DNA of 64,000 nt, taken from positions 7,331 through 71,330 of the forward strand of contig CAXVYQ010000004.1 of assembly GCA_963662495.2 (NCBI GenBank), given 5' to 3'. The notes under the pieces are model-generated. The model was not told where the DNA came from, did not search any database, and was given only the letters and a program-made list of their open reading frames with translations. The position numbers and the translations under genes were made by a program. The stretch comes from Terriglobia bacterium. Its GTDB lineage: Bacteria > Acidobacteriota > Terriglobia > 2-12-FULL-54-10. Within the stretch, counting starts at the first letter, position 1. Every line of letters starts with the position of its first letter. Positions 34,254 through 39,854 of this stretch are shown here, in pieces.

Positions 34254-35072
34254 ATGACGAATCACTGGGCGCATCGCCGGAACATCACCCTGAAAACAGC
34301 CACCGTCTTGCTCATCGCCTGCCTGCTCGCGGCCGTCGCCAGCAGCCAGATCCGTTACCGCCGCCTGAACGTTCCCGGCGAGCCGGAGGCCGAGTTCCAT
34401 CTGGGCCGCATGGCCTACAGCACCCGCGGTGGCGGGGGTGGCTCCCGCGGTTTTTTCAACCGCTATTGGGCCATCGACTATCCCATGGCCGAGGTGCATT
34501 TCCTTCCCGCGCTGCGCCGGCTCACCGGCATCTTCGTCGCCGAGGACAGCGTCCATGTGGAAGCTACTGACGACCGCATTTTCGACTACCCGTTTCTCTT
34601 CGTTCAGCAGGTCGGCCAGGGCAACTGGAACCCCACGGAAGAGGAGGCCGCCCGTCTCCGCGAATACCTGCTGCGTGGAGGTTTTCTGCTCTTCGATGAC
34701 TTTCACGGTGAGATTGACTGGATCGTCTTCGAGTCCGCCATCCGCCGCATCCTTCCCGGCCGGCCCATCGTCGAGATCCCGGACGACGACCCCATGATGC
34801 ACGTCTTTTTCGACCTCGGCGACCGCATCCAGATCCCCGGCCAGCGGCACCTGCGCATGTCGCGCGGAGGCGAGGTCGTTGCGAGGATGCAGGGCGAGCC
34901 GCACTGGCGCGGCATCTACGACGACCACGGCCGTCTCATCGTCGGCATCAATTTCAACATCGACATGGGCGATGCCTGGGAGCACGCCGACGATGCCTGG
35001 TACCCGTCCTCGATGACCACGCTTGCCTATCGCCTAGGGGTCAACTACGTCCTCTACGCCATGACGCATTGA
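34254..35072 (+). CDS. DUF4159 domain protein
   Basis: WAIDYP.AE, LREYLLRGGFL.FDDF, DMGDAWEHAD, LGVNYVLYAMTH. Confidence 0.85.
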   Translation: MTNHWAHRRNITLKTATVLLIACLLAAVASSQIRYRRLNVPGEPEAEFHLGRMAYSTRGGGGGSRGFFNRYWAIDYPMAEVHFLPALRRLTGIFVAEDSVHVEATDDRIFDYPFLFVQQVGQGNWNPTEEEAARLREYLLRGGFLLFDDFHGEIDWIVFESAIRRILPGRPIVEIPDDDPMMHVFFDLGDRIQIPGQRHLRMSRGGEVVARMQGEPHWRGIYDDHGRLIVGINFNIDMGDAWEHADDAWYPSSMTTLAYRLGVNYVLYAMTH

Positions 35073-35224
35073 ACGGTCCGGTCCCGCGCCGGGCGACCCG
35101 TGCGGGCTTGTCGCAATCAGCAACCAGACTGTTGTTGCTCTCTCCCTGCTCGCACGGTAAAATTTTCCAGTCGGCATTATGATGATTGCACGACCCCGCG
35201 CCGAATCCATCTCAGGAGGAAACC

Positions 35225-36007
35225 ATGTCCATCGCCTGTCCCGTTGATCTCGATACCGAGATGCTCCGCAGCGAGGTTTCCAGCATGTATACCCGGGTCG
35301 CGCAGACCCCGGACGGTGACTTTCATTTCCACCGCGGCCCCACCTACGCCGCCGAATACCTTGGCTACGACGGAGCCGAACTAGCCGCTCTGCCCGCCGA
35401 AACGACGCGTTCGTTTGCCGGCGTCGGCAACCCCACCGCCATCGCTCCGATCCAGCCGGGCGAGACGGTTCTCGACATCGGCTGTGGCGCCGGCATGGAC
35501 CTGCTGCTGGCCGCCCGCCGCGTGGGCCCCACCGGACGCGCCATCGGCGTGGATATGACCGAGCCCATGGCGCAGCGCGCCCGCGACTCGGCCGCCGCCA
35601 TCGGCCTCGCTCACGTCGAGGTCCGCTCCACCGATGCCACCGCGCTGCCCTTTGACGACGATTCCATCGATGTCGTCATCTCAAACGGCGTGCTGAATCT
35701 CGTCCCGGAAAAAGAGCAGGCCTTCGCGGAAATTTTTCGCGTCCTGCGCCCCGGCGGCCGTCTCCAGCTTGCCGATATCATCGTCGAAGAGGAGCTCTCC
35801 GACGACATCCGCAGTAACGTCGATCTGTGGGCCAGCTGAATCGGCGGCGCTCTGCCGGAGGCGGAGCTGATCGGCTATCTGAATGATCTGGGTTTTGTTG
35901 ATGTGGAATTGAAGACGCGATTCGACTGCTTCCGCGATACCTCGAAGGAACGCACCGCTCGCCGGTACGGTGTCCGCGGCGCCAACATCCTCGCCGTCAA
36001 GCTCTGA
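35225..36007 (+). CDS. ArsM-like SAM-dependent methyltransferase, probable selenoprotein (TGA 35837-35839)
   Basis: VLDIGCGAG and DVVISNGVLNL. LWAS-[TGA]-IGGAL matches the ArsM W-x-x-C-I-x-G-A motif, and the frame stays open 55 more codons. Confidence 0.85.
35840..35872 (+). promoter_or_regulatory. SECIS-like hairpin
   Basis: GCTCTGCC-GGA-GGCGGAGC stem-loop at 35849-35867, with the apical G 18 nt after the TGA. Confidence 0.65.
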
Positions 36008-36130
36008 TCGCCTTCAGACCGGCGTCTGACCCGGTAATTCAACCCGGTGACACATCCTTACCGAAGTCGAACTGCTCGGCGTTGCTCTTCTCATTCGTTC
36101 AGGGGTAATCTGAGGATAGGAGAAACCCTC

Positions 36131-36334
36131 ATGAAGCTTCAAATAATTCTTGAGCCCAGCGACGAAGGCGGCTTCACCGCCACCGTGCCTTCCCTGCCCG
36201 GCTGCATCAGTGAAGGCGACACCCGCCAGCACGCTCTGGCCAATATCGAGGAAGCGATCCGCCTCTACCTTGAACCCTTGGACAAAGGAGAGGAGCTCTC
36301 CCCGGACGCCGAAATCATCGAGCTTGCTCTGTGA
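36131..36334 (+). CDS. hicB: HicB family antitoxin
   Basis: GGFTATVPSLPGCISEGDT...ALANIEEAI. Confidence 0.9.
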   Translation: MKLQIILEPSDEGGFTATVPSLPGCISEGDTRQHALANIEEAIRLYLEPLDKGEELSPDAEIIELAL

Positions 36335-36558
36335 CCAAGGTTCCGAGTCTGGGGTTTGACAGAGTGATTCGGGCGCTGCACCGGGATGGCTGGCAAACAG
36401 TTCGCCAGCGCGGCAGCCACATGCGCCTGGAAAAGGAGCTCCCCGATGCGCTACTCAAGCTGACCATCCCCGCCCATCGCCCCATCAAAAGATCCACCTT
36501 GGCCCAAATATTGAAACAGGCCCGCATCACTCTGGAAAAATTCCAGGATCTGCTCTAA
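36331..36558 (+). CDS. hicA: HicA family toxin
   Basis: GW..VRQRGSH and IPAH..IKRSTL..ILKQA. Overlaps hicB by GTGA. Confidence 0.9.
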   Translation: MTKVPSLGFDRVIRALHRDGWQTVRQRGSHMRLEKELPDALLKLTIPAHRPIKRSTLAQILKQARITLEKFQDLL

Positions 36559-37810: not shown

Positions 37811-39546
37811 CTACTCCGGCAATGCAAACACGTAAATCTCATTGTGCCCGCGCGGCGGCTTGATCTCCGGCACCACGTCCAGCGGCCCCCGCGTCCCGGA
37901 CGCGCCGTCACCCGTCATCACCGCCACGTATTGTTTCCCGTCCACCGCGTAGCTGATCGTGCTGTTCTGGATGATGCCTCCCAGGATCGACTCCCACAGA
38001 ATCTCGCCCGTATCGGCATCGAAGGCCCGGAACCGCCGGTTCATATCTCCCCAGAAGAGCAGGTCGCCGGCCGTTGCCAGCATCGCCCCTTACCCGGAGC
38101 GCGCTGCGAATAGAGCCGCTCCACCTTCGCGATCACAGCGTATGCATTCGGATCAGCCCCCGGCCGCAGCACTCCCACCCTCGGCCCGTTGCCGTTCACC
38201 GTATCCGGGTTCGCCGTCGTATCCACGCATTGGTCATGATAGGGAATAAACAACGCGTTCTTGCCGGGATGATACGCCATGGGCCAGTAGCTCTTCGTAT
38301 TGTGAAAGCACATGATGTGGCGGTCTTCCCAGCTCTTGATGACCACGTCCCAGTTCATATACGTCTTGCCTGTCTCCACGTCGATGCGCTGTATATGAAA
38401 CTCCGGCACATCGTGCGGGAACGGCGTAGCCCACAGGAACTCTCCGTCCTCCGGGTCGTTCACCCAGATGCCGCCAGGCTCTCCCAATGACACCACGATC
38501 TCGCGCTCCTCACGCTGCTTCACCCGCGGGTTGATCCATTTCACGGCCTCGGCGTCCGGACTCATTCGCGTCCGCAGCAGGATGCGCTCCTGCGTATGGT
38601 CGGCATCCCAGTCGTCCCCCGGCAGGTGTTGGTAGTACCACTTCAGCTCGCCGGTCCCGAGGTCCAGCGCCACCGTGGAGTTGCTGTAGAGATCGGCCGG
38701 GGCGGAACGCGGGATGTCATCGATGTCGCCGCCGTGCCGCTTCAGCCGCGTGTGCGGAGCCGGGTTGGCGATCCCCCAGTAGAGCAGATTCCGCGCCGGG
38801 TCATAGGCTCCCGGCAAACCCCAGGGTGTCGCCGATCTTTTATCGAACGGCACGGTCCCCCAGGTCTCATCCCCCGGCTCGCCCGGGCCGGGAGTAGTGA
38901 AAAACCTCCATACCTCATCGCCCGTCCGCCCGTCAAAGGCCGCGATACAGTCCCGCCCGTCGCCGCATCCGGTCAGCCCCGCGACGACCTTGTCGCCGAA
39001 TGCCTTCGGACCGGAGCTGGAAAACGGCGCCGCCTTCTCCCATCGCACCTTCCCCGTGCGCGCATCCAGCGCCACCATGGTCCGGTCGGGTGAGGAGTAG
39101 ACCACCAGATCCTCGATCAGCGCAATCGTCCGCCCGGCCCTGCCTCCGCGCTCCATCTTGCGCTGGTAATCCCAGATCAGGTCGCCGTTGGTTGCGTCCA
39201 GCGCCTGCATCCCTCCGGGGTTCGCCACGAACAGGACGCCGTCGTGCACCAGCGGGATGTGCTCATGAATTCCTGGGGAGAGTCCCCGGGACCATGCCAG
39301 CCGCAACTGATCCGCGTTCCGCCGGTTGATCTGATCCAGCGGACTGAACCGCTGGTTGTCATAGGTCCGGCTGTACGTCAGCCAGTCGTCGGGGCTCGGC
39401 TCCAGCAGCATCGGCGCTGTTACCGGCTCGTAGTCGGGCGCCTGCGCCCACAACTCCGCCACCACCGCGCTCATCAGGATCGCGCTGGTCAGCACTCCTG
39501 TACGAATGCCTGTCTGCATGCCTGTCCGCATGATAGTTCTGATCAT
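37811..39546 (-). CDS. PQQ-dependent dehydrogenase family protein, frameshifted near 38090
   Basis: Signal peptide, RFSPLDQIN, ALDARTGKVRW and WYYQHLPGDDWDAD. The C-terminus MLATAGDLLFWGD...GKQYVAV lies in another frame. Confidence 0.8.
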
Positions 39547-39854
39547 TTCGATCCCTCCCTCGCACTGCCTGCTCCGCCCGTCCCCCGCAGATTCCCCGCG
39601 GCAACCCCGCAGCATCTCCGCGGCATACGCGCGGCAGACCCGCGGCATCATTGGTGCCCCAAAGTCTACCTCACCCCGCCCGCTTCGCAACCCCCTCGCT
39701 GAGAAGATTCCCCCCACCCCACCCGCCGCACGGGCCGCATCCTCACCACCCCATTCAAACTGTCGGTTGCTTGAATGCTTTCTACCTCTCTGCCGAAGGC
39801 CCGAGCGGAGCCGCGCAGCGGCACAGCGAGCGCCACCTCACACACTCCCGCCCT

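Follow-up and report, generated by a model that had tools for sequence, protein, structure and literature searches.

A predicted SECIS-directed selenocysteine methyltransferase of a distinct ArsM-fold clade in a Terriglobia bacterium

The stretch of DNA considered here (the window) comprises 64,000 nucleotides of a Terriglobia bacterium (contig CAXVYQ010000004.1, positions 7,331 to 71,330, or G000:C4:7331-71330), whose genome, G000, amounts to 3.28 Mb in 12 contigs. On its forward strand, the ATG at 35225 opens an open reading frame (ORF) with a single internal TGA at codon 205, in the context NVDLWAS-U-IGGALPEAEL when that TGA is read as selenocysteine (Sec, U). The TGA is followed by 55 sense codons with the C-terminal end GANILAVKL, and then by the TGA at 36005-36007. 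An earlier interpretation made from the letters alone (the sequence-only reading) had proposed that the locus hides a selenoprotein related to the arsenite methyltransferase ArsM, and both the TGA in LWAS-*-IGGAL and its 55-codon in-frame extension were recovered as described upon translation with TGA as U. It had also warned that standard gene callers would truncate such a gene, and the databases bear this out. Translation by genetic code table 11 from the ATG at 35225 yields 204 amino acids (aa) (217 aa in the ORF listing, which starts the frame at TTG 35186), and 104 of the 120 best protein-database relatives are exactly 204 aa in length. Several clade members among these relatives carry the Joint Genome Institute (JGI) name "arsenite methyltransferase". 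Judging from the comparative evidence below, 35225-36007 is almost certainly a real selenoprotein gene; the features of the locus are collected in Table 1.

Table 1. Predicted features in and around the selenoprotein gene, in window coordinates (SAM, S-adenosylmethionine; SECIS, selenocysteine insertion sequence).
Feature	Position	Strand	Basis or remark
DUF4159	34254-35072		neighbour of the selenoprotein gene
Shine-Dalgarno-like AGGAGG	35214..35219	+	5 nt before the ATG, read from the sequence
Selenoprotein coding sequence, 260 codons plus terminal TGA stop; ArsM-fold SAM-dependent methyltransferase	35225..36007	+	translation with TGA = U
Cys5 codon TGT, IACP motif; clade-specific conserved Cys	35237..35239	+	Cys in 62/62 Sec forms, 14/18 Cys forms
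H34-F35-H36-R37-G38 motif, at the place of the canonical ArsM S-C-C-G pair	35324..35338	+	80/80 sequences; local alignment confidence low
Val67 codon, CmArsM Cys72 column, GCGNP to GVGNP	35423..35425	+	phmmer alignment to 4kw7, 5evj
SAM-binding motif I VLDIGCGAG, residues 82-90	35468..35494	+	inside Pfam methyltransferase matches (residues 77-206); aligns with ArsM structures
Gly155 codon, column of As(III)-binding CmArsM Cys174, SNCV to SNGV	35687..35689	+	alignment to 4kw7, 5evj
UGA selenocysteine codon Sec205, motif U-I-G-G, CmArsM Cys224 column	35837..35839	+	translation, ArsM alignment, TGA/Cys pairing
Bacterial SECIS hairpin; arms 35849-35856 and 35860-35867, loop GGA 35857-35859	35849..35867	+	fold and covariation
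Ordinary TGA stop, no second Sec	36005..36007	+	orthologues stop at the same place with TGA/TAG/TAA
HicB/HicA pair: HicB-like antitoxin (67 aa), HicA toxin (75 aa), reading frames overlapping	36131-36558	+	directly downstream of the selenoprotein gene

The internal TGA recurs at the same column in relatives both near and far. A search of 41 genomes, including G000, returned four more full-length copies in three genomes of the same taxonomic family, at 54-70% identity over residues 1-259 or 1-260 and with one TGA each. All five family sequences share the TGA column (LW[AT][SG]-U-I[AG]GAL). The other matches in these genomes are without internal stops, at 39-47% identity, and mostly start near query residue 40-48. 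In a wider scan with one genome per species, 172 stretches matched, 98 of them coding for a relative, and the top 80 of these were retained. Of those 80 loci, 61 have TGA, 12 have TGC and 6 have TGT at the Sec column, and at L087 the gene was not found by the motif search; the TGA/Cys pairing anticipated by the sequence-only reading is thus present, at 61 TGA, 18 Cys and one unplaced locus. Counts given hereafter for 62 Sec forms refer to the 61 TGA loci plus the window, and those for Cys forms to the 18. Further Cys forms occur among Sec-like sequences in the protein database (P0003, P0005 and P0006). Two full-length database relatives carry Trp (P0004) or Arg (P0017) at this column, each one base from TGA, which may reflect genuine substitutions, errors of sequencing or translation with a different code.

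In a quick maximum-likelihood tree (LG+G4, SH-aLRT support only) of 80 clade sequences with seven canonical ArsMs as the outgroup, the clade was split from the canonical ArsMs with a support of 100. All 18 Cys forms fell into one group (support 99), which was nested with three Sec forms, L094, L078 and L086 (support 100). Within this 80-sequence sample, a single change between Sec and Cys would suffice. The closest relatives of the window gene come from the Acidobacteriota (Terriglobia and Solibacteraceae). The clade at large is a sizeable and widespread one of soil bacteria, with hosts among Acidobacteriota, Myxococcota, Beta- and Gammaproteobacteria, and others.

The full-length product is predicted to be a 260-aa SAM-dependent methyltransferase of the ArsM/AS3MT fold. 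Pfam recognizes class I methyltransferase domains in it (Methyltransf_31, 6.6e-31), and its best matches in the Protein Data Bank (PDB) are arsenite methyltransferases, namely 5evj (2.1e-25) and the CmArsM entries 4kw7 and 4fr0 (~5e-23). It has in common with the CmArsM/AS3MT structures (4fr0, 4kw7, 5evj and 8xt7) the SAM core and the W-x-x-C-[IL]-x-G-A segment, over residues 50-230 (E 2e-25 to 5e-21), but is shorter than the solved ArsM chains (321-387 residues) and keeps only the Cys224 column, as Sec. Profile-profile comparison with hhalign, using 56 clade members and 12 canonical ArsMs from related genomes, likewise aligned the two groups with a probability of 100% and 40% identity over 222 columns.

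It is in the cysteines that the clade departs from ArsM. In phmmer alignments to 4kw7 and 5evj, CmArsM Cys72 corresponds to Val67, Cys174 to Gly155, and Cys224 to Sec205; the last of these agrees with the sequence-only reading, which had put the Sec at the Cys of the ArsM W-x-x-C-I-x-G-A motif. That reading had also pointed to an altered Cys set, with GVGNP in place of GCGNP and cysteines in IACP (C5) and FDCF (C235). These residues are as claimed and the alteration is real, but the description was incomplete: Cys174 (SNCVINL to SNGVLNL, G155) has been lost too, as apparently has the N-terminal CC pair (Cys44), and C235 is not a conserved feature, being present in 36 of the 62 Sec forms and 16 of the 18 Cys forms. 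The column of Cys72 is never Cys in the Sec forms (V 41, I 13, M 4, T 2, L 2) and is Val in every Cys form, while the column of Cys174 is Gly in all 62 Sec forms and all 18 Cys forms. By contrast with these losses, the residues His34-Phe-His36-Arg37-Gly38 are invariant in both groups, and Cys5 is found in every Sec form and in 14 of the Cys forms. As far as these alignments tell, the canonical ArsM Cys72, Cys174 and CC pair are gone throughout the clade, with Cys5 and His34-x-His36-Arg37 conserved instead.

These replacements bear directly on whether the enzyme could be a genuine arsenite or methylarsenite methyltransferase, i.e., a plain member of the Sec-ArsM family in which Sec alone is enough to bind the arsenical. 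Such an identity is improbable, even though Sec205 occupies the As(III)-binding Cys224 column within a UxxG motif like that given for the listed Sec-ArsM family, its closest relatives in PDB and NCBIfam are ArsM proteins, and JGI names clade members accordingly. One published survey accepted ArsM only with at least three of the four cysteines at 44, 72, 174 and 224 (PMC5552862), and the window clade appears to keep one of these four positions, as Sec205. The protein falls outside that definition because the Cys72 and Cys174 columns are never Cys in the clade and the CC pair is apparently replaced. Its score against the ArsM model NF008823 (229.5 bits) is also under the cut-off of 263. In addition, a survey of the nearest flanking ORF on each side, covering 144 ORFs at 79 loci, found no arsenic transporter, reductase or other ars family, the sole "arsR" matches being regulators fused to a rhodanese domain. 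Canonical ArsM genes of related genomes, on the other hand, retain the motifs, with 14 of 16 showing GCGNP, SNCVIN and W-x-G-C together (the last motif of L027 and L039 was not matched by the pattern, and L040 mismatched the GCGNP pattern).

The host genome also has an ArsM-like gene of its own with the cysteines in place. This 396-aa gene has an N-terminal CC pair, GCGDP, SNCVLN and LWSGCIAGAF, and Cys fills the columns of C72, C174 and C224. Next to it lies a TIGR04283 arsenosugar-biosynthesis glycosyltransferase (263.8 bits, cut-off 182). With this all-Cys gene present in an arsenosugar setting, we infer that the arsenite methyltransferase of the cell is not the Sec protein. Taken together, the sequence comparisons make it probable that the window protein is not a canonical arsenite methyltransferase. 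The 396-aa gene lies on G000:C2 (locus L004, 68-2978), where a PiT/sulfate-permease-like gene is another flanking gene, and the region is probably an arsenosugar or arsenolipid cluster.

Selenocysteine in ArsM has already been published at the family level, and no new kind of recoding is involved here. In the parts of the literature covered, two reviews list a selenoprotein arsenite methyltransferase (PRK11873/NF008823, example WP_011987699.1) above those that come under a heading of predicted families. In the 2026 review, the Sec-ArsM motif is given as UxxG and Fomenko et al. 2007 is cited for the family, and the Global Ocean Sampling (GOS) study names arsM among selenoprotein families common to prokaryotes and eukaryotes. 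Three related model families, NF041537 (ArsM/AhpD selenoprotein), NF041536 (ArsM/DUF2284 selenoprotein) and NF047649 (methyltransferase/UXPK-star), are credited to Haft & Tolstoy 2025. A stand-alone Sec clade without Cys72, Cys174 and the CC pair was not found described in the literature, which offered only family-level Sec-ArsM listings, although Haft & Tolstoy 2025 may contain it. The main text of the BSepDB paper (PMC13326102) has neither "methyltransferase" nor "arsenite". The sequence-only reading's "hidden selenoprotein" is therefore new only for the stand-alone clade, since Sec-ArsM with UxxG is a listed selenoprotein family.

The window protein passes none of the NCBIfam models. It scores 233.4 bits against NF041537 (cut-off 510), 230.5 bits against NF041536 (cut-off 575) and 215.2 bits against NF047649 (cut-off 460). 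Like the listed Sec-ArsM proteins, it has the ArsM fold, a Sec in U-x-x-G at the column of the C-terminal As-binding Cys, and a SECIS directly 3′ of the UGA. It differs from them, in a comparison made by listing and model, in scoring under the NF008823 cut-off, in having no equivalents of Cys72 or Cys174 and apparently none of the CC pair, and in possessing C5 and HFHRG. The three related families are its best NCBIfam matches, from residue 9-10 on and with the N-terminal region included, and they have the UxxG Sec motif in common with it. In the case of NF041537 and NF041536, it is only the methyltransferase part of the models that matches, the window protein ending at residue 260 without an AhpD or DUF2284 domain. 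Compared with NF047649, it is without a second Sec or a C-terminal U-x-P-K end, its terminal TGA being a plain stop. None of 301 genomes of the phylum (a tally that includes the unpublished genome G188) reaches the NF047649 cut-off. One gene of the same phylum, L126 (G321:C93:1037-1864), matches NF047649 over positions 7-277 with TGA in frame twice, and the UXPK-star type of double selenoprotein may be nearer to it.

The apparatus for reading UGA as Sec is complete in the host genome. Genes for selA (467.9 bits), selB (350.4 bits) and selD (351.3 bits) all score over their family cut-offs, and aragorn detected one tRNA-Sec(tca), which provides the machinery that the sequence-only reading had presupposed. 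UGA205 is thus predicted to be decoded as Sec by this SelA/SelB/SelD/tRNA-Sec system, under the direction of the hairpin that begins 9 nt past the UGA. A tRNA scan of the window itself found no tRNA genes. The selD gene (G000:C4:125061-125999, locus L019) has one in-frame TGA of its own, and the SelD of G000 is for this reason probably a selenoprotein as well.

That hairpin, GCUCUGCC-GGA-GGCGGAGC, is the 8-bp stem with a GGA loop that had been noticed just 3′ of the TGA. Its eight pairs start 9 nt past the TGA, giving a UGA-to-loop spacing of 17 nt, and its minimum free energy (MFE) of -12.7 kcal/mol (z -3.72) was equalled by none of 200 shuffles. The published bacterial SECIS (bSECIS) model calls for a loop of 3-9 nt whose first two positions contain G, a stem of 4-16 bp, a UGA-to-loop distance of 16-37 nt and an MFE no higher than -7.5 kcal/mol (PMC13188914), and the GGA loop, 8 bp, 17 nt and -12.7 kcal/mol of the window hairpin lie within every one of these bounds. 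An Rfam scan of 35000-36300 gave nothing significant, its best hit being a chance match to a viral hairpin (E 0.43); with no match reaching significance, this result says nothing on the SECIS.

The comparative evidence for this helix is considerably more telling. From the TGA to +50, the alignment of the 62 TGA genes is free of gaps, and 95.8% of the 496 cells formed by helix columns 13-20 with 24-31 can pair, as against a shuffled mean of 87.2%, with none of 500 shuffles attaining this percentage. When the 3′ arm is shifted by 1-3 columns, pairing falls to 29.6-54.8%. Compensatory changes are seen at three of the eight pairs (G-C to C-G in six sequences; C-G to U-A in one; and C-G to A-U in 19 or to U-A in eight), and the first loop base is an invariant G. 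Furthermore, these compensatory changes accompany amino-acid changes from PE to LE, QV or QS, so that preserving the helix comes at the protein's expense. Although a similar peptide, GALPEPE, is encoded by the 18 Cys genes, only 53.7% of their cells pair, with 394 of 500 shuffles doing at least as well. These alignments mark the hairpin as a covarying bacterial SECIS that is missing from the Cys forms, in keeping with the proposal that had been made for it. The locus could serve as a clean positive control for SECIS detection, in that TGA forms covary while Cys forms coding for a similar peptide (GALPE.E) do so without the helix.

It is very improbable that the TGA is a true stop, leaving a 204-aa truncated methyltransferase or a pseudogene with a leftover frame downstream. 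Gene callers do yield products of 204 aa, and TGA also serves as the terminal stop of the same gene, but these points must be set against a TGA at the exact same column in 61 loci across several phyla (with Cys in 18), a hairpin that covaries in TGA forms only, and a full Sec machinery in the genome. Moreover, the 55 codons downstream behave as coding sequence. The frame past the TGA (53-80 codons) is open in all 62 TGA genes, and its three codon positions differ from the window by 0.36, 0.355 and 0.58 per site, i.e., with the third-position bias expected of coding-type substitution. Mean amino-acid identity to the window is 0.51-0.56 past the TGA, compared with 0.63-0.65 upstream, so the extension is conserved, as the sequence-only reading needed it to be. 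The 62 TGA genes terminate in TGA (40), TAG (12) or TAA (9), with one running off its locus. Since TAG or TAA can take its place at the end of orthologues, the final TGA of the window gene is an ordinary stop, and there is no reassignment of TGA. A second Sec at the terminal TGA (36005), an idea raised by the NF047649 match, was rejected for the same reason; the sequence that follows, in which the frame reads S-P-S-D, is not conserved.

An assembly or sequencing error for TGC or TGT, or a genome-wide reassignment of TGA, is negligible as an explanation and found no supporting point, given that 35100-36100 is identical, with the same TGA, in contigs of four runs from four studies (one of which may be the assembly's source), that the same TGA occurs in 61 other genomes, and that TGA terminates the window gene and 39 of 61 Sec-form orthologues at the very place where others use TAG or TAA. 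None of the sequencing runs listed as carrying the region is an RNA data set.

Relatives with additional domains may offer some insight into the chemistry of the clade. In 12 of the 18 Cys forms (loci within L081-L120), the methyltransferase gene adjoins an ORF for an AurF-like di-iron protein, which mostly ends just before the methyltransferase start, and in P0126 (587 aa) a Cys-form methyltransferase is fused to an AurF-like domain. This association points to a two-enzyme pathway of the Cys forms that would be distinct from that of the Sec forms. Another large set of proteins, exemplified by P0163 and P0203 (~550 aa), has a DsbA-like/Thioredoxin_5 domain fused to a methyltransferase with the SNG motif and a single Cys. 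P0163, P0203 and P0126 resemble the window protein in their residue pattern, in which the C72 column holds Val, that of C174 holds Gly and a single Cys stands at position 205, with 45-56% identity over 92-99% of the query. They differ from it in having Cys rather than Sec, as well as extra domains that it lacks, and P0163 and P0203 have YHFPLG where the window protein has FHFHRG. The DsbA-like fusions would be consistent with thiol-disulfide chemistry at the single Cys or Sec. Some of the DsbA-like fusion proteins are labelled as originating from metagenome-assembled genomes of Methanobacteriota.

A clustering of all flanking ORFs revealed a number of recurring neighbours of the Sec forms, including ArsR-rhodanese proteins (9 loci), DsrE-like proteins (8), major facilitator superfamily (MFS) transporters (7), LysR regulators (7) and metallo-β-lactamase (MBL)-fold hydrolases (6). 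An ArsR-rhodanese/MBL/MFS/methyltransferase group occurs, whole or in part, at L052, L059, L066, L071, L075 and L093, and the nearest-ORF survey added one more DsrE neighbour, at L050. A methyltransferase-rhodanese fusion stands beside the Sec form at L065, and class-V aminotransferases of the cysteine-desulfurase type are located directly downstream in L079 and L080. Altogether, 19 of the 61 Sec-form loci have at least one gene for a DsrE, ArsR-rhodanese, rhodanese-fused methyltransferase, class-V aminotransferase or MBL-fold protein within 3 kb. These neighbours hint at sulfur or selenium trafficking, short of a conserved operon; the latter was ruled out, as the immediate neighbours are heterogeneous. 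In some loci, the ORF of the MFS transporter overlaps or is fused with the start of the methyltransferase (P0128, 631 aa; L093, 1583-3019 and 3001-3783), which suggests that the transporter and methyltransferase are translationally coupled.

Considered as a whole, the gene most probably encodes an intact, SECIS-directed Sec methyltransferase that belongs to a distinct clade and is not a canonical arsenite enzyme. Under this interpretation, Sec205 would serve as the soft nucleophile or ligand by which the substrate is held beside the methyl group of SAM, Cys5 would be a candidate resolving thiol, and His34, His36 and Arg37 would take the place of the ArsM thiol ligands. A site built on Sec205 as the ligand, with His34, His36 and Arg37 standing in for the ArsM thiols, would therefore not be that of a canonical arsenite methyltransferase.

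Several points weigh against this interpretation. First, longer stretches around the hairpin fold unexceptionally for G+C-rich DNA (81 nt, z -0.91; 34 nt, z -1.03). Hairpin energy from a single sequence is weak evidence because the fold is unremarkable in this longer context, and the case for the SECIS is a comparative one, not one of single-sequence energy. Second, hhalign sets the clade F-H-R-G over the ArsM S-C-C-G with low local confidence, Cys5 lies upstream and outside the aligned region, and the closeness of C5, H34, H36 and R37 to Sec205 is putative. Third, the recurring neighbours are a mixed set seen at fewer than one third of the loci, the assignments to MBL and MFS are unspecific, and the window's own neighbours (DUF4159, NMT1-like, HicB/HicA and Zn-dependent dehydrogenase) give no functional hint. 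Finally, arsenic chemistry is possible because the position that Sec205 occupies is proven to bind As(III) and the labels given by JGI read "arsenite methyltransferase".

As to what a Sec methyltransferase of this kind might act upon, a species of sulfur or selenium (for example a persulfide, a sulfide or a selenide), conceivably delivered by DsrE- or rhodanese-type carriers, is the leading though tentative candidate, and an unusual arsenical, which is less likely, comes next. The most far-reaching proposal, that of a widespread soil and sediment Sec methyltransferase with a new site of Cys5/His34/His36/Arg37/Sec205 that methylates S or Se species from DsrE/rhodanese carriers, is doubtful in its entirety but would have clear consequences. 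If the clade did methylate S or Se, it would represent a biochemical activity distinct from arsenite methylation, and many environmental "arsM" calls would be mislabelled. Irrespective of substrate, soil arsM gene surveys may be counting a truncated and probably non-arsenite enzyme, since 104 of 120 relatives are cut at 204 aa and several are named "arsenite methyltransferase". The clade may also be viewed as a natural experiment on what Sec contributes to a methyltransferase, with one soft ArsM ligand kept as Sec and the other three cysteines apparently replaced, and as a lead to a new substrate.

With regard to the immediate surroundings of the gene, the window's neighbours not already mentioned with coordinates are an NMT1-like binding protein and, on the other strand, a Zn-dependent dehydrogenase. 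A promoter scan of 34900-36300 found no promoter-like site, and a terminator scan of the same interval called one terminator-like site, a chance-level number. A perfect 6-bp inverted repeat, TCAGAC-CGGC-GTCTGA (36014-36029, + strand), begins 7 nt past the stop codon; it is without a T-run and was not called in the terminator scan. Further downstream, on the reverse strand, a 558-aa ORF (38041-39717) and a 90-aa ORF (37811-38083) overlap in different frames. Both resemble parts of what we take to be one PQQ-dependent dehydrogenase (37811-39717), and their overlap may reflect a frameshift or an assembly error.

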